DNA of 64,000 nucleotides from an uncultured Candidatus Saccharibacteria bacterium (GTDB taxonomy: Bacteria; Patescibacteriota; Minisyncoccia; Phycocordibacterales; JAACPR01), in NCBI GenBank assembly GCA_964538855.1, contig CAZIEY010000001.1, forward strand, positions 82,811 to 146,810, read 5' to 3'. The stretch's first letter is position 1. Every line of letters begins with the position of its first letter. This document shows, piece by piece, positions 4,713 to 53,942 of this stretch. The notes beneath the pieces are model-generated. The model saw only the letters and a list, made by a program, of their open reading frames with translations, was not told the DNA's origin and searched no databases. Made by a program: the position numbers and the translations under genes.

Positions 4713-5513
4713 ATGAACATGCTCGAGAAATTTGAAGCTTATAAAAAGATGCGCCGTGTATTCGATCAAAAAGACGAATCGGGTTTCACCTCGACGCACG
4801 AAATTGGAATCGACTACACAACGACCGAGAAGGGTTTGTTTTTGCCGGCAGAAACCGCGGTGATGTATCAATTACTGGACGACGCATTGAAGAGTGGGTT
4901 TATGAATCCTGCCCAACCTTTTGTTGATGCAGGTTCTGGTGACGCTCGGGTGAATCACATCGCAGCGCTGCTTGGTGTACGCACATCGATTGGTATTGAA
5001 TACGACGGCGACATCGTAGAAAAAAGTCGCGCACAAACAAAAGCGTTCGAGGACGCCGGCATCATTCCCGCTGGTCGCATCACATTATTGCAAGGCGACT
5101 TTACCGACACTGCGACGTACACACGACATGGCATAAATGTTCAGGACATTGGGACTTTTTTTAATTATGTAAACGGCTGGAAAAGTTTGCTCGATTTTAT
5201 TTCGACGCACGGCGCGGTCGGAACTAAATTAATTTTAATTGACGAGCAATACAATGTATCGAACAGAATTGTCGAAACCATCGGCGTACACCCAACACTC
5301 TCCATCACAGACACCGTCAAATATGTGTACGACGCGAAACGCGACACCTCTGAAAAATTAACTGACGAGAAGCTACATAAATTGCAAAAAATTGATGCAG
5401 AATTAACCTCACAACACATGCACTTAGACGCTTCGCACGCCGGCCAATTTGCAATTACCCCAAGAGATTACAGAGTCGTGACTGTGTATTTGTGTGAAAA
5501 GATACAGCAATAA
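4713..5513 (+). CDS. hypothetical protein, class I SAM-methyltransferase-like
   Basis: 266 aa; VDAGSGDARV glycine-rich motif-I-like segment; TAA stop. Confidence 0.4.
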   Translation: MNMLEKFEAYKKMRRVFDQKDESGFTSTHEIGIDYTTTEKGLFLPAETAVMYQLLDDALKSGFMNPAQPFVDAGSGDARVNHIAALLGVRTSIGIEYDGDIVEKSRAQTKAFEDAGIIPAGRITLLQGDFTDTATYTRHGINVQDIGTFFNYVNGWKSLLDFISTHGAVGTKLILIDEQYNVSNRIVETIGVHPTLSITDTVKYVYDAKRDTSEKLTDEKLHKLQKIDAELTSQHMHLDASHAGQFAITPRDYRVVTVYLCEKIQQ

Positions 5514-37104: not shown

Positions 37105-37333
37105 TGCGGGTCCACCACTCTCGGTCACGAATCACTAAGTAAAATGCTTCGCCTCGACCATATTTCGATAGATGATGACGGCTCGCATTTTACAAAGTGT
37201 TCGCGACCCCGGCTCGGCCATCCCAGATTTCGCTGCGCTCCATACTGGGACCCTTGGCCTGCGCCTTTCGAATCCTGGTGGACCTCGCAACAAAAATCGC
37301 CGCCTCCTCTCGGAGACGGCTCATTTTGTTGTG
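37105..37333 (-). repeat. tRNA-trailing GC-rich element ending in 13-14-nt direct copy of tRNA-Trp 3' end; contains inverted copy of tRNA T-arm
   Basis: Blocks GCCGAGCCGGGGTCGCGAACACTT (rc of 37195-37218) and ACTTAGTGATTCGTGACCGAG (rc of 37119-37140) are shared with the Leu element; 37105-37117 tgcgggtccacca duplicates 37332-37344; 37267-37284 ttcgaatcctggtggacc is the inverted complement of the tRNA 3' region. Confidence 0.65.
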
Positions 37334-37405
37334 CGGGTCCACCAGGATTCGAACCTGGAACCTCAGTTTTGGAGACCGATGTTTTACCATTGAAACTATA
37401 GACCC
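37334..37405 (-). tRNA. tRNA-Trp (anticodon CCA)
   Basis: GGGTCTATAGTTTCAATGGTAAAACATCGGTCTCCAAAACTGAGG…TTCGAATCCTGGTGGACCCG; CCA not encoded. Confidence 0.85.
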
Positions 37406-37432: not shown

Positions 37433-37515
37433 GCAAATAAAAAGTACTCAAATTTTGAAGTCCTCGGGTCGCTCTGCTCAACCAGACATTCAAAATTTGA
37501 GTACTTTTTATTTGC
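37433..37515. repeat. AT-rich terminal-inverted-repeat element E1 (27-bp perfect IR, 29-nt GC-rich core)
   Basis: gcaaataaaaagtactcaaattttgaa … ttcaaaatttgagtactttttatttgc; core GTCCTCGGGTCGC is shared with E3. Confidence 0.6.
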
Positions 37516-37747
37516 CTGCTACGAGAATCCTACTTCTTCACTTCTTTGAACACTACAACCTTTCGTAATTTTCGGCTGAATTTTCGTAATTCCAATTTTT
37601 CCGCGTTATTTTTACGATTTTTTCTAGAATAATAAACTTCGCCAGTTGGCTTGTGCTTTAAAATGACTAATTTCTCTTGTGACATAGTTAAACTAGATTA
37701 CTATATTATTAAGGTTTTAGCAACTGTTTATAGGTCAAAAATGACTT

Positions 37748-39132: not shown

Positions 39133-39138
39133 TTAAAT

Positions 39139-39172
39139 AAAAAACACCTCGCACATCGCGAGGTGTTTTTTA
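39139..39172. terminator. bidirectional intrinsic terminator between convergent CARDB gene and gyrB
   Basis: CACCTCGC…GCGAGGTG 8-bp stem flanked by AAAAA / TTTTTTATTTTTT. Confidence 0.75.
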
Positions 39173-39176
39173 TTTT

Positions 39177-48960: not shown

Positions 48961-49470
48961 TTAACCAACAACAGAAAATCGCGCGATGCGACCGATTGCA
49001 ACCTTTTCTCCAAATTTTTGAACAGCTTGTTCGAGCAGACTTTCGATAGTCTGGTCTGGATTTTTAATATAGGCCTGTTTTACGAGCACTTTCCCTTCTG
49101 CAACAGCTGCCTCGAGCGCATCTGCTGCAACATCAGTAACGTTTGCAAATTCGGGTGCAGTCGCAGACACTTGTACTGCAATTTCACGCGCGAGTTTTTT
49201 AAACTCTTCATTATTGGAAACGAAGTCAGTTTCACACATCAATTCAACCATAGAACCAATCATGCCATTCCCATGAATATATGTTGCTACAGTTCCCGCA
49301 CCCAAAGTACGATCAGCTTTTTTTGCAGCAGATACCGCGCTATTTTTGAGTAGAACGGCTTTAGCTGCCTCCAAGTCACCATTCGCTTCTTCCAAAGCTT
49401 TTTTACATTGACCAATAGAAACACCTGTTGCTTCACGTAATACTTTGACTTGATCCATTGAAATTGCCAT
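48961..49470 (-). CDS. tsf: translation elongation factor Ts (short form)
   Basis: UBA-like N-terminus MAISMDQVKVLREATGVSIGQCKKALEEANGDLEAA; rpsB-tsf synteny. Confidence 0.85.
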   Translation of the reverse strand: MAISMDQVKVLREATGVSIGQCKKALEEANGDLEAAKAVLLKNSAVSAAKKADRTLGAGTVATYIHGNGMIGSMVELMCETDFVSNNEEFKKLAREIAVQVSATAPEFANVTDVAADALEAAVAEGKVLVKQAYIKNPDQTIESLLEQAVQKFGEKVAIGRIARFSVVG

Positions 49471-49510
49471 GGTTCTTGAGGGTTAAACTATTAAAACTCG
49501 AAAAACAAAA

Positions 49511-50215
49511 CTACGCTGTTTTCCCAGACTTATATGATTCTACTATCTCGTTGAGGAAAAATTTAATACTATCAACAGATGAATCGTTACCAGGGATAAC
49601 ATAATCGATGAGGCTGTAGTTACAGTCAGTGTTTGCGAGGCTGATGATTGGCACGCCAGTTTGAATTGCTTCGTCTCGGGCGATGTTTTCTTTGTCAGCG
49701 TCAATAATGAAGATTGCTGCTGGTTTTTTGTCCATTGAAACAATTCCACTGAATCGTTCTTCTAATTTTGCGATTTCTCGGTCGATCAAAAGTCGTTCTT
49801 TCTTTTTGTATTTTACGAGCTCGCCTTTTTCTTTTTGAGAAAGTAATTTTGTGTAGTGGTCGATTCTCTTTCGGATTTCTGTAAAGTTAGTCAAAGTTCC
49901 ACCAATCCATCGTCCAGACACATGTGGCATATCAATTTTTTCTGCTGCATCTTTGATTGCGGCTTGTGCTTCTTTTTTACCACCAACGAAAAGAATGCGT
50001 TTGCCTTCTTTGGCGAGTGTTGCAACGAATGCTTTTGCCTTTTCTAATTGAACCTCGACTTTTTCAAGGTCAAAAATTTCGACATTATTTTTTCGGCCGA
50101 AAATATACGAAGCGGTTGTTGGGTGTCGTCGTGATTTGATATAACCAAAATGAGCCCCGACGTCAAACATCGACTCAATTTTGTTCTTTGAAACCTTGTT
50201 TTTTGTTGAAATCAT
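49511..50215 (-). CDS. rpsB: 30S ribosomal protein S2
   Basis: MFDVGAHFGY…HVSGRWIGGTLTNF. Confidence 0.95.
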   Translation of the reverse strand: MISTKNKVSKNKIESMFDVGAHFGYIKSRRHPTTASYIFGRKNNVEIFDLEKVEVQLEKAKAFVATLAKEGKRILFVGGKKEAQAAIKDAAEKIDMPHVSGRWIGGTLTNFTEIRKRIDHYTKLLSQKEKGELVKYKKKERLLIDREIAKLEERFSGIVSMDKKPAAIFIIDADKENIARDEAIQTGVPIISLANTDCNYSLIDYVIPGNDSSVDSIKFFLNEIVESYKSGKTA

Positions 50216-50261
50216 GTAGGACGAAGTCTAGCAAATCGGCGGTTTTAAATCAAGAGGCAAC

Positions 50262-51254
50262 CTATAATGAGGTTGTGGAATCATCCTGTACCTGTGCTTC
50301 ATCAGCTTTTTTGGCCAAAGTATCAATAATATCGGCAATATCCCCTTTCATTGCTTCTTCTATGTTATGCCAGGATTCACCAATACGGTGATCAGTAATA
50401 CGGTTTTGAGGAAAATTATACGTGCGAATCTTTTCTGACCGGTCATTCGTACCAATTTGTGATTTTCGATTTGCAGCGAATTTTTTGGCTTCTTCCTCCT
50501 CTTTATGAAGTTGCAATTTAGACATCAAAAGCGACATAGCAGTTTCTCGGTTTTTGAGCTGACTGCGTTCTGAGGTACAGCGCACATCAATACCAGTCGG
50601 CAAGTGCACAAGGCGCACTGCGGTCTCAACTTTGTTCACGTTCTGACCACCTTTACCACCAGCACGCGAAAATTCCATATGAATTTCTTCTGGACGAACT
50701 TCGATATTGTACTTTTTACGAATCGGCAAAATAGCAACTGACGCGGTCGAAGTATGAATACGTCCCATTTTTTCAGTAATTGGAATTCTCTGAACACGAT
50801 GCACACCAGTTTCAAAACGCATCTTTTTATAGACTCCCTGGCCGTGCATCTCTATAGAAACCTCCTTATAGCCACCCGCTTCAGAAAGAGATTCCTCGGT
50901 CTTTTTCACTTGCCAACCCTGAGCCTCGCCATAACGGCTATACATTTCAGCGAGCTGAGCTGCAAAAATAGAAGCTTCGTCACCACCAGCACCAGCACGA
51001 ATTTCCAGCATAATTTCATTTGGGAACTGCTCTTCTTCTTTTTCACTTTTCACAATCTCTTTGATTTGAGACATCATCGCCGCTTTTTGTTCGGCAATAG
51101 ATTTAGACTCTTCCTCAACCATATCCTTCATGTCGGGATCGGTTTCAAGAAGTGCTATATTTTCCTGCTCCTTAGCCAAAAGTCGCTCCAACTCCTCGGC
51201 GAAGAATTTAGTTTTGACGTTTTCTTTGTGCTTTTTTAGATCTTCTGGATTCAT
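50262..51254 (-). CDS. prfA: peptide chain release factor 1-type (PxT = PIT; GGQ present)
   Basis: GGQNVNK GGQ motif; [15 protein letters not shown] aligns to the RF1 PxT tripeptide region (not the SPF of RF2). Confidence 0.8.
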
Positions 51255-51297
51255 GTTATTTTTTGCACTTCGTATGGAATAAGTCTACTACAAAAAT

Positions 51298-51431
51298 AAA
51301 TTTAAAAATACTCATTATTTTGAGCCTTTCGGAGGACGCCTGTTTTCTCCCAATTAGCGTCCGGGAACGAGCTGATTTTTCCTGATAAGGCAAAATACAG
51401 CGTGCTCAAAATAATGAGTATTTTTAAATTT
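51298..51431. repeat. AT-rich terminal-inverted-repeat element E2 (28-bp perfect IR, 78-nt core) between rpmE and prfA
   Basis: aaatttaaaaatactcattattttgagc … gctcaaaataatgagtatttttaaattt; right arm overlaps the rpmE stop codon; inner GGACGC/GCGTCC palindrome. Confidence 0.6.
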
Positions 51432-51690
51432 ATTTCTTTGTCTTAGCCTTGGACATTCGAGTCTTGAACTTCTCTACGCGACCAGCAGCATCAAGAATGT
51501 TTTCCTTGCCAGTATAGAATGGGTGTGACGCAGATGAAATTTCAATGTTATAAGCAGGATATTCCTTACCATCTGTCCATTTTTCGACTTTGTCTGTTTC
51601 AACAGTTGAATAGACCAAGAATCGCTCGCTTGATGAGTCGTCGATAAAAATCACTTTTCGGTTATTTTGTGGATGAATGTCTTTTTTCAT
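51430..51690 (-). CDS. rpmE: 50S ribosomal protein L31 (no CxxC; type B-like)
   Basis: MKKDIHPQNNRKV…HPFYTGK. Confidence 0.85.
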   Translation of the reverse strand: MKKDIHPQNNRKVIFIDDSSSERFLVYSTVETDKVEKWTDGKEYPAYNIEISSASHPFYTGKENILDAAGRVEKFKTRMSKAKTKK

Positions 51691-51738
51691 GTACTTATAA
51701 TACGTTAAATTTGTCCACAGACTATATCAAAATACAGC

Positions 51739-53118
51739 TTAATCGTCAACTTCTTCCAAGAAATTCAGCTGTTCTTGGAAAGTCGCAGCGTGCGACAAGA
51801 CGCTATTTGCATAACCAAGTCCAAGCGTAGCCCAAGCGCCTCCTGCATAATACCGCGCTGCTGCTTGCTGTTCTGCACTATAACCGCCCGCCGCTGCACC
51901 GAGATCTTTTACGAAAAGGCCCGTTGCCATAAAGGCGTGCTCTGGTAGCCATGGATTTGCAGCTGAAATTCCGAGCGTTGTCGCGACACGTGCCGCATAA
52001 CCGATCCACGTTGAAGGAATAAACTGTGAGGGACCCATCGCACCTCCGTACCCAACCGAAAGTGGGCACGATACAGGTGTCTGATATGGATCTAATCCAA
52101 GCGCTCGAGTAATCGTCAAGAATGGAGTCACATCTCGATCCGGTTTCATCACTTTGGCAAACGGTGTACCAGTATTTTTACCGATTCCCGCGCCCGTTTC
52201 AGTATTCGATAGGTAACACTGACCGACATTAACCCCGAGATTTGATTCTTGTTTCAAAATACCCAAAATAAATGCGGCGCGCACCCCGGTAAATTTCGAA
52301 GCTTTATTCGCATATTTTACCGCATCTCCAAACGAAATCCCCTCCTGATCGCGCAACTTAAAAAGCTGAGCCCTGATTGATGCCGCCTTGGCATTTTTCT
52401 GTTGGATGACAGTTTGATAATTTGCCTCGGTTTGTTTACTGATCGATAGAAGCCCTGCTTTTTCCTGCTTTTTAATAGTCACCGTACGCTTATCTTGTTC
52501 AATTTCTGCTTTCACATCTTGCTCCTTATTTTGTTTAATTTGTAACTCTTGCTTCTCTTTCTCGTTTTGTTCTTGAATAACTTTCACTTCATCGATTAGG
52601 TCATTCAGCTGTCTCTCTACTACAGTGAACTCATCAAATTCCACGAAAAAATCTGACAAGGTTTCGTTGCCCAGCAAAATTTCTGGCAGAGACATATTGT
52701 CTGCCTCGTTCGTCTTGCGCATTAGATCAATGAGGTTTTTTTTACTACGATTAATTTTTTCTTCAAGTTGGTTAATAGTCTGCTCTTTTAATTCAATTCC
52801 AGACATGAGATTTTTGATTTCGATATTTTTCTTTTGAATAACAAGCTCGGCTTGTTTAACTTGATTTGTGAGGACAGAAATATCGCGTGAAATGGTGGCG
52901 GTTTGACTCTGTTGCTGTTTGAGAGATTCATTCAAGACACGAGCCTCTTCCTCGATTTGAGCAAGTTCTTTGCGTAGTTGAGCTTCCTGTTGCGGCGTAA
53001 GAGCAGCAAATACCTGTAAAGGCAGGATATTAAACACAAAAGCCACAAGAACGAGCATTAGTGCCGGTTTTTTAAGAATAGCAAAAATCATCTTCTTTAT
53101 TATAGCAAAAAAACTCAT
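51739..53118 (-). CDS. secreted coiled-coil protein with C-terminal lytic-transglycosylase (SLT)-like domain
   Basis: Signal peptide, ~250 aa heptad-rich region, then ILKQESN…GAMGPSQFIPSTW resembling SLT catalytic Glu and GxMQ blocks. Confidence 0.5.
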   Translation of the reverse strand: MSFFAIIKKMIFAILKKPALMLVLVAFVFNILPLQVFAALTPQQEAQLRKELAQIEEEARVLNESLKQQQSQTATISRDISVLTNQVKQAELVIQKKNIEIKNLMSGIELKEQTINQLEEKINRSKKNLIDLMRKTNEADNMSLPEILLGNETLSDFFVEFDEFTVVERQLNDLIDEVKVIQEQNEKEKQELQIKQNKEQDVKAEIEQDKRTVTIKKQEKAGLLSISKQTEANYQTVIQQKNAKAASIRAQLFKLRDQEGISFGDAVKYANKASKFTGVRAAFILGILKQESNLGVNVGQCYLSNTETGAGIGKNTGTPFAKVMKPDRDVTPFLTITRALGLDPYQTPVSCPLSVGYGGAMGPSQFIPSTWIGYAARVATTLGISAANPWLPEHAFMATGLFVKDLGAAAGGYSAEQQAAARYYAGGAWATLGLGYANSVLSHAATFQEQLNFLEEVDD

Positions 53119-53157: not shown

Positions 53158-53279
53158 AAGTAAAGCAAAACTGCTTAATTTTAAAAGTCTGGTTGAGCAT
53201 CAACACAAAACGCACGTTCTTTACAGAACGTGCGTGATGCGACCCGAGGACTTTAAAATTAAGCAGTTTTGTTTTACTT
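53158..53279. repeat. AT-rich terminal-inverted-repeat element E3 (~31-bp IR, 1 mismatch + 1 indel) immediately 3' of rplY
   Basis: aagtaaagcaaaactgcttaattttaaaagtc … gactttaaaattaagcagttttgttttactt; core ends in GCGACCCGAGGAC (reverse complement of the E1 core GTCCTCGGGTCGC) and has an inner ACGCACGTTCT/AGAACGTGCGT hairpin. Confidence 0.6.
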
Positions 53280-53942
53280 CTTGTCCTGACCTTCCGCCGC
53301 TGGAGTTCCTCCTGGCACACCTTCTTCGTCTTTCTTACCCTTCTTTTCAACTTCGATTGAAGCGAGGTCAACTGGAGCCGCCTCTTCTTCCTTCTCTTCG
53401 CGAGGTTCTTTAACGAGCGCAATCACTTCGTCAGATTTTGAAACTAATTCAACACCTTCTGGCAATTTCACATCTTTTGCTTGAATGTGCGCAGCAAAAT
53501 CCACGAGAGAAGAGATGTCTACAGTAATATTGTGTGGGAGGTTTTTAGGCATCGCTTCGATTTCGACTTCGTGCATAACTTTCATCAAAATACCACCGAG
53601 GTTTTTCACTGCAGCAGATACACCAACGAATTCGAGAGGAACGTTAACTTTGAGCTTCTTACCTTTTTCAATAACATAAAAGTCTGCGTGGAGAGGTCGC
53701 AATGACACCGCGTCAAATTGTACATCTTTTAACAATGTGTCGTGTTCTTCTGAACCAAGTTTAAGAGTAATAATTGAAGATTCACCGGCTTCTTTGTACG
53801 CTTTCAAAAATTCGACTTCGTTAATAGTAATAGGTGTAGATGCTTCTTTTGGACCGTAAAATACAGCAGGAATATTGCCGCCTTTTCGCATTTGGGCTTT
53901 ATCTGACTTTAATTCTCGTGTCTTTGCGTTTAATATCAACAT
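53274..53942 (-). CDS. rplY: 50S ribosomal protein L25 / general stress protein Ctc
   Basis: MLILNAKTRE…NIPAVFYGP…; Ctc-type C-terminal extension with acidic tail. Confidence 0.85.
   Translation of the reverse strand: MLILNAKTRELKSDKAQMRKGGNIPAVFYGPKEASTPITINEVEFLKAYKEAGESSIITLKLGSEEHDTLLKDVQFDAVSLRPLHADFYVIEKGKKLKVNVPLEFVGVSAAVKNLGGILMKVMHEVEIEAMPKNLPHNITVDISSLVDFAAHIQAKDVKLPEGVELVSKSDEVIALVKEPREEKEEEAAPVDLASIEVEKKGKKDEEGVPGGTPAAEGQDKK

Follow-up and report, generated by a model that had tools for sequence, protein, structure and literature searches.

The window, that is, the whole stretch of 64,000 nt that was analysed, contains three long inverted repeats and only three, designated E1, E2 and E3 (Table 1). 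The remaining inverted repeats of the window are short hairpins between an A-tract and a T-tract, as is typical of bidirectional terminators. E2, the subject of this analysis, lies between rpmE (ribosomal protein L31) and prfA (release factor 1), E1 lies between rpmG and the tRNA-Trp gene, and E3 is antisense to rplY. Two of the elements had been noted to lie immediately 3' of a ribosomal-protein gene in the preliminary description; in our analysis, all three were so placed (rpmG for E1, rpmE for E2, and rplY for E3).

Table 1. Coordinates of E2, E1 and E3 and of the neighbouring genes in the window.
Feature	Position	Strand	Remarks
tRNA-Trp	37333..37405		next to E1
E1 (type-A)	37433..37515	-	27-nt perfect arms; model score 71.3 bits
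E1 core, GTCTGGTTGAGC-AGA-GCGACCCGAGGAC	37460-37487	-
rpmG	37530..37685		next to E1
prfA (release factor 1)	50262..51254	-	downstream of E2; PF03462, PF00472
TAGTAGACT, probable prfA -10 region, as judged from its sequence	51281..51289	-	homologous to the TAGTATACT box 3' of the terminator of relatives
E2 3' arm (mRNA sense; left arm on the + strand), then UUUUUG	51294..51325	-
E2 core, 78 nt, G+C-richer	51326..51403	-	no similar sequence elsewhere in the searched data
Core hairpin B, GGACGCU...GGCGUCC	51334..51362	-	MFE structure; closing U.G is C-G in L005
Core hairpin A, GCUGUAUUUUGCC-UUAU-CAGGAAAAAUCAGC, imperfect	51371..51401	-	MFE structure
E2 5' arm (mRNA sense; right arm on the + strand)	51404..51435	-	32 nt, 100% complementary; includes the final Lys codon of rpmE and its TAA stop; rpmE ends at 51430
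rpmE (ribosomal protein L31)	51430..51690	-	upstream of E2; PF01197
E3 (type-A)	53158..53279	+	model score 68.9 bits; 40-nt inner hairpin
E3 core	53187-53251	+
rplY	53274..53942		E3 antisense to it; E3 arm spans its stop codon

E2 is 142 bp in total. Its arms had been described as perfect over 28 nt, and they are indeed perfect and somewhat longer: the 28 nt are the inner portion of a 32-nt inverted repeat (51294-51325 / 51404-51435) with 100% complementarity, whose two arms are separated by the 78-nt core. The number of chance occurrences expected in the window for the 22-nt arm pattern of E2 was 0.00. The overlap of the right arm with the rpmE stop codon was confirmed (the stop at 51430-51432 and the last Lys codon lie within the arm), and so was the palindrome within the core, GGACGC(C)...(A)GCGTCC at 51334-51362, with a stem of 6-7 bp; a second small hairpin was found in the core at 51371-51401. 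The predicted folding energy was about -61 kcal/mol on either strand, as compared with a mean of -26 for the shuffled sequences (z = -9.7 and -9.3 on the two strands), and none of the 200 shuffles was equally good. A small ORF in the 3' arm (19 residues, ending 1 nt before the ATG of prfA) was considered as a conserved coding sequence and rejected; in L005 (see below), its stop codon is lost and the changes are mostly non-synonymous.

E2 is not an assembly artefact, since independent public assemblies carry its halves joined to rpmE or prfA. The contig joined to rpmE (L001) ends 30 nt into the E2 arm, another (L003) begins inside the E2 arm upstream of prfA, and two more (L004 and L005) contain most of the core, the arm and prfA. 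As for the assemblies themselves, short-read assemblies were seen to break at hairpins: L001 (1-48 and 1771-1800) and L003 (1-30) end inside E3/E2 arms, and L001, a contig of 1.8 kb, runs exactly from E3 to E2.

Relatives with the identical gene order aldolase-rplY-SLT-rpmE-prfA-rpsB-tsf were recovered, and the prfA homologs carry the name Candidatus Parcubacteria. The rpmE-prfA spacer is 175 nt in the window, where it contains E2, 52 nt in L006 (88% identity in prfA), where it contains one small hairpin, AAAATACTCCG-TAAAG-CGGGGTATTTT, and then TGTAGTATACT, and 61 nt in L007-L009 (78% identity in prfA), where it contains a GC-rich terminator and then TAGTATACT. By sequence inspection and a terminator scan, the spacers of L006 and of L007-L009 were both found to consist of a simple hairpin with a T-run. 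Besides the window, E2 was present only in the near strains L004 (99.5% nucleotide identity in prfA) and L005 (97% amino acid identity). The orthologous site is polymorphic for presence and absence, with E2 in the place of the terminator, and parsimony on these spacers places the gain of E2 after the divergence from the 88%-identity lineage.

Traces of the simple terminator were looked at on both sides of E2. The stem AAAATACTCCG/CGGGGTATTTT of L006 and AAAAATACTC of E2 are equally far from the stop codon, and the box TGTAGTA(G/T)ACT is located 3' of both the L006 stem and E2. The Lys codon and the stop codon in the outer arm of E2 are identical in L006 and L007, and in L007 the complementarity of the flanks already reaches within 2 nt of the rpmE stop codon. 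On the promoter side, E2 has a 12-nt mirror image of the Lys/stop sequence, TAAATTTATTTT, that is missing from L006.

The sequence AATTTTRAA-GTCTGGTTGAGC-(loop)-GCGACCCGAGGAC-TTYAAAATT is common to E1 (minus strand) and E3 (plus strand), which thus have opposite orientations relative to their upstream genes. Plain terminators were found at their places in relatives, namely in the rplY-SLT spacer of L007 (for E3) and, GC-rich, in the rpmG-tRNA-Trp spacers of L010 and L012 (for E1). Because E1, E2 and E3 each occupy a site that holds a plain terminator in relatives, the role as terminators or mRNA stabilisers that had been put forward for two of them fits the position. No contig with E1 was found among the other strains searched. 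The arm of E3 mirrors the rplY stop codon. A copy of the E3-type core with the same 40-nt inner hairpin was found at a different locus, between convergent genes (L012, 8438-8546), where the core is enclosed in a different terminator-like stem, AAAAGAGACC/GGTCTCTTTT; judging from this copy, the comparison suggests that a cassette with inner arms of about 10 bp lands at the apex of existing hairpins.

Some further features were seen near E1 and its counterpart in relatives. On the minus strand, the final 13 nt of tRNA-Trp, TGGTGGACCCGCA (37344-37332), have a second, directly repeated copy at 37117-37105. The GC-rich stretch of about 215 nt between the TGGTGGACCCGCA repeats (window 37105-37344) starts with an inverted copy of the 3' end of the tRNA (37284-37267), is conserved in the relative L010 (6985-7190), and has no match in Rfam; it could be an att-like remnant of integration or a non-coding RNA. 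In L010, a compound hairpin (5137-5225) with 29-nt arms that are 90% complementary and a 31-nt core lies between the convergent gyrB and CARDB-domain genes. It is not recognised by the covariance model R1 (see below), and its equivalent in the window (39135-39175) is a simple terminator.

The family to which E1 and E3 belong is referred to as type-A. Its core is a 25-nt bipartite sequence, GTCTGGTTGAGC-(variable hairpin)-GCGACCCGAGGAC. A search of 185,579 species genomes added a single copy (L016, in a 5' UTR); both halves of the core, 3-33 nt apart, occur in at least 120 metagenome contigs, apparently of Parcubacteria/Patescibacteria. The architecture was derived from the 125 matches listed. 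Note that the exact search pattern imposes the invariance of the core in these matches; diverged copies exist, as the family model finds ones with one to several core substitutions. From the outside to the inside, the matches listed (n = 125) consist of a stem that varies by locus, a one-base bulge, the core, and a central hairpin of variable length (modes at 3, 10, 18 and 26-29 nt), and in all of them the core is enclosed by a long covarying stem. For 57 non-redundant copies, pairing in the outer stem was observed in 88.8% of the cells (70.3% when shuffled), and the covariation score was 0.428, as compared with 0.123 for the shuffles and 0.12-0.21 for the slid controls. On the strand that reads GTCTGG, the core folds as GUCU/GGAC, a CGA bulge, GGUU/GACC, a GA bulge and GC/GC, with two fixed G.U pairs; in the outer stems of the matches listed, G.U pairs number 174 on the GTCTGG strand and 83 on the opposite strand. 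A covariance model of the type-A family, R1, was built in this analysis; it detected 124 copies, diverged ones included, in 0.8 Mb of type-A loci, with at most 3 per 10 kb.

Approximately 42 of the 121 listed copies lie within long housekeeping ORFs and are read through in frame (these counts rest on our own ORF heuristic). The hosts include PolA, UvrA, UvrB, LigA, AlaRS, the CCA-adding enzyme, a Mur ligase, RNase R, Tgt, IscS and others, and all three reading frames are used. Among the matches listed, the strand that reads GTCCTC is in the mRNA in 36 of the 42 in-ORF copies. The same strand is in the mRNA of 21 intergenic copies between co-directional genes, against 12 with the other strand (matches listed); this bias exists, yet the two fixed G.U pairs favour the folding of the opposite, GTCTGG strand. 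Intergenic copies are found directly 3' of stop codons between co-directional genes (e.g. tuf-rpsJ, map-ndk and atpG-atpD). At the listed loci no split genes were seen, the flanking ORFs all being separate genes.

The linker site of PolA contains the element in some close homologs and lacks it in another. The names carried by the hosts of the PolA homologs, filled and empty sites together, include Parcubacteria, Patescibacteria, Minisyncoccia, Nomurabacteria, Kaiserbacteria, Vogelbacteria, Uhrbacteria and Paceibacterota. Many PolA database entries from CPR bins are labelled 'partial' and have domains on only one side of the PolA insertion site; hairpin inserts that break assemblies may be among the reasons why 'partial' gene calls are so frequent in CPR bins. 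One Mur-ligase site has type-A copies in opposite orientations in two genomes (L123, 1809-1842, and L110, 798-832), as if, to judge from the two sequences, the core had been inverted by recombination between the arms. From the PheT orthologs, no exact value for the length of the insertion was obtained, as the proteins are too divergent.

At the loci examined, no transposase-like gene recurred as a neighbour of type-A copies, and housekeeping genes alone recurred. The copies matched no specific Rfam family at either gathering or permissive thresholds, and no description of the family was found in the literature, by sequence or by keywords. A type-A core as the core of a hammerhead, twister, pistol or hairpin ribozyme or of a bulge-helix-bulge intron was dropped, there being neither Rfam support nor split genes. 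The type-A core shows a 9-nt coincidence with the hairpin ribozyme and, on the GTCCTC strand, a BHB-like arrangement of bulges. With its conserved centre and variable, covarying ends, the E1/E3 family is apparently an unusual and undescribed variant among small palindromic elements.

E1, E2 and E3 had been described as one small family. The grouping was upheld for E1 and E3, true relatives that share the bipartite core (71 and 69 bits with R1), and failed for E2, which has no such core. R1 gave E2 10.4 bits (E = 7), all from the stem, and ordinary terminator hairpins of the window score 10-15 bits. E2 does have the long outer stem of a type-A element (32 bp, perfect). Similarity of the arms beyond AT-richness, as had been proposed, was also found: the E2 arm can be aligned in full with that of E1, AAAAA(G)TACTCA..ATTTTGA, with a score of 31 (p = 0.0004 against shuffles) that none of the 121 other family arms reaches. 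The motif AAAARTACTC is confined to E1 and E2 in the window (4 matches against 0.44 expected), and arms of the E1/E2 type were found elsewhere in the same strains only, plus two lone matches (L020 and L131). The arms of E3 have no similarity to those of E2. A second copy of the E2 core was found neither in the window nor in 0.89 Mb of related CPR loci, viral contigs, phages and plasmids; thus, E2 itself is at most a putative mobile element. A search of E2 against Rfam 15, at gathering and permissive thresholds, returned only generic long-hairpin models (plant miRNA precursors), with less than 30 bits against thresholds above 130, and the type-A copies gave the same picture. As far as the sequences tell, E2 is half a member of the family: its stem is homologous to that of E1, and its core is unrelated to type-A.

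On balance, we regard E2 as a palindromic insertion, confined to one lineage, into the apex of the rpmE terminator, and as the present 3' hairpin of rpmE. A cassette of E1's kind would have colonised the apex of the ancestral rpmE terminator hairpin, or the hairpin would have grown outward there. The AAAATACTC stem of the ancestral terminator would then survive in the outer arm of E2, with the TGTAGTA-ACT box still recognisable downstream, and the arms would have been perfected by palindrome correction; the 12-nt mirror image of the host Lys/stop sequence suggests an outward extension and perfecting by template switching. The rpmE message would carry E2 at its 3' end, and a separate promoter directly downstream of E2 would serve prfA. 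The rpmE transcript is expected to end in, or to be cut within, a duplex of 32-34 bp followed by UUUUUG, and the long stem with its U-run (UUUAUUUUUG, directly 3' of the stem) might terminate transcription, be a target of RNase III or protect the 3' end. No canonical terminator was detected at E2 by the consensus scan (50900-51800), so that termination, processing by RNase III and protection of the 3' end are equally plausible; the AU-rich base of the stem also makes efficient intrinsic termination uncertain. Rather than a new regulatory device, E2 would mainly be a selfish or neutral element, tolerated by its host, to which the job of the terminator has passed. The replacement of simple terminators by E1 and E3 as well argues for the insertion, whereas the absence of a target-site duplication at E2 and of a second copy of its core in the searched data argues against it. 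The conservation of E2, which is like that of the spacers (95-96%) and above that of synonymous positions (69-85%), could alternatively reflect function or recombination.

In a wider and more tentative reading, which we offer as a possibility, E1, E2 and E3 would be products of an undescribed hairpin-insertion system that is widespread in Parcubacteria/Patescibacteria. The asymmetric core, with its two fixed bulges and two G.U pairs, would be the recognition module of an enzyme acting on single-stranded DNA or RNA. The enzyme would insert the cassette into the apices of hairpins and, in frame, into essential genes at sites that permit it, with the stem made or maintained locally. E2 would then be a derivative, the core of which was exchanged for another structured RNA under selection at the rpmE-prfA junction.

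It is rather unlikely that E2 is a functional structured RNA kept by selection, be it a cis-regulator of prfA or a small RNA from the 3' UTR of rpmE. Between the window and L005, the visible part of E2 is identical at 91/94 positions (97%), and the third-codon positions are identical at 69% in prfA and 85% in rpsB, a difference that is significant even at 15% divergence (binomial p = 2e-4). From this comparison, E2 is not decaying freely. The identity in the adjoining spacers is however equally high (95.7% for prfA-rpsB and 96.1% for rpsB-tsf), which weakens the case for strong purifying selection on E2; the 39 nt from E2 to the start of prfA are 85% identical. The divergence from L005 is mosaic over 49460-51400 of the window, which suggests recombination between strains. 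With such mosaic divergence and equally conserved spacers, the identity of E2 cannot separate selection from recombination or recent spread. The three substitutions in E2 spare or improve pairing on the mRNA-sense strand (two lie at unpaired positions, and the third replaces a U.G by a C-G pair in hairpin B), and the A to G variant in the arm of L004 would form a G.U pair on that strand, as a functional RNA with so stable a fold (z = -9.7) would have it, but three substitutions alone are no real test of covariation. In addition, the relatives at 88% and 78% identity manage without E2, by a plain terminator, and Rfam has no match for it.

That E2 was never mobile and arose on the spot, by template-switch (quasi-palindrome) lengthening of the rpmE terminator together with a single unrelated insertion into its loop, also seems improbable to us. 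The outer arm includes ancestral host sequence, as its Lys and stop codons in L006 and L007 indicate, the mirror image TAAATTTATTTT on the promoter side is absent from L006, the rplY stop codon is likewise mirrored in the arm of E3, the arms are perfect across 32 bp, and the core is single-copy in the searched data; all these points speak for such lengthening. Purely local growth does not explain the whole-arm homology to the arm of E1, at an unrelated locus 14 kb away, and leaves the origin of the 78-nt core unexplained; since the flanks are complementary to within 2 nt of the stop codon in L007, the extension needed is moreover small.

That E2 is a degenerate or circularly permuted E1/E3 element is very improbable and was rejected: its arms are E1-like and, by eye, GTCCGGGAACGAGC-(27-nt hairpin)-GCG and CGGAGGAC in E2 resemble the core halves in swapped order, but these matches are at chance level (p = 0.86 with dinucleotide shuffles and 0.69 with random window segments) and the covariance model score of E2 comes entirely from the stem.

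CPR/Patescibacteria have small, streamlined genomes that are regarded as containing little mobile DNA. The present data indicate that CPR terminators can be colonised by palindromic cassettes, and that one cassette family, with a core identical in all retrieved copies (as the search pattern imposes), is spread across many lineages. The type-A cassette is tolerated in frame within PolA, UvrA, UvrB, LigA, tRNA synthetases and other essential genes, in parallel to the palindromic elements of Rickettsia, another group with reduced genomes. Its core is a concrete, searchable motif with which to ask how elements move without a transposase. The stake of E2 itself is modest, namely whether termination or processing between rpmE and prfA is now the task of a selfish hairpin.

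E2 and the E1/E3 family were compared with known systems. The elements had been called MITE- or REP-like, and these labels are better taken as analogy than as membership, as target-site duplications and terminal repeats conserved across copies are lacking and no transposase recurred next to the family copies. The check for target-site duplications that had been proposed gave none at E1, E2 or E3; for E2, the flanks (CTACAAAAAT before one arm and CTTTGTCTTA after the other) contain no direct repeat. The MITEs Correia/NEMIS, ERIC and RUP are small, non-coding and bounded by inverted repeats. E2 is also small, non-coding and bounded by terminal inverted repeats, lies in transcribed intergenic DNA, and is of a kind that can supply or alter terminators and RNase III sites; it differs in having no target-site duplication. 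The E1/E3 family reverses the MITE plan, with variable terminal repeats and a conserved centre, and no parent IS was seen near its copies. REP/REPIN elements are mobilised by RAYT transposases, and a REPIN forms a long imperfect hairpin whose asymmetric features are conserved. The elements described here are likewise extragenic palindromes 3' of genes, and the type-A core has its fixed bulges and two G.U pairs; E2, in contrast, lacks the GTAG or CGTC tag that accompanies the short GC-rich imperfect palindrome of REP elements, its arms are AT-rich, and the copy number seen is low (one in the 64-kb window and none in the 0.89 Mb of related loci). A RAYT gene was not seen in the neighbourhood of the elements.

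The Rickettsia palindromic elements (RPEs) are hairpin repeats located in the intergenic DNA and, in frame, in the genes of a reduced genome. By description, the E1/E3 family is similar to them: both are hairpin repeats of about 70-110 bp, are found between genes as well as in frame in housekeeping genes, and have no transposase of their own. The E1/E3 family differs from RPEs in the 25-nt core that is identical in the retrieved copies (imposed by the pattern), in its locus-specific stems and in its CPR/Patescibacteria hosts, and E2 itself is intergenic and has no such core. With bidirectional terminators, E2 shares the A-tract and T-tract that flank the hairpin, as in I4, I5, I8 and I13 of the window, and the 3' position, which is orthologous to that of the terminators of relatives. 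In place of the short GC-rich stem-loop of an intrinsic terminator, E2 has a 32-bp stem with an AU-rich base and a 78-nt 'loop' with two hairpins. The intervening sequences (IVS) of 23S rRNA are extended hairpins at the apex of a pre-existing helix, with a long duplex in which cutting by RNase III is expected. By analogy, E2 would be an extended hairpin at a helix apex, with a long perfect duplex in which a cut by RNase III might be expected; its host helix would be the terminator of an mRNA and not a helix of rRNA. Taken across these comparisons, E2 would work like a palindromic insertion that replaces a terminator.
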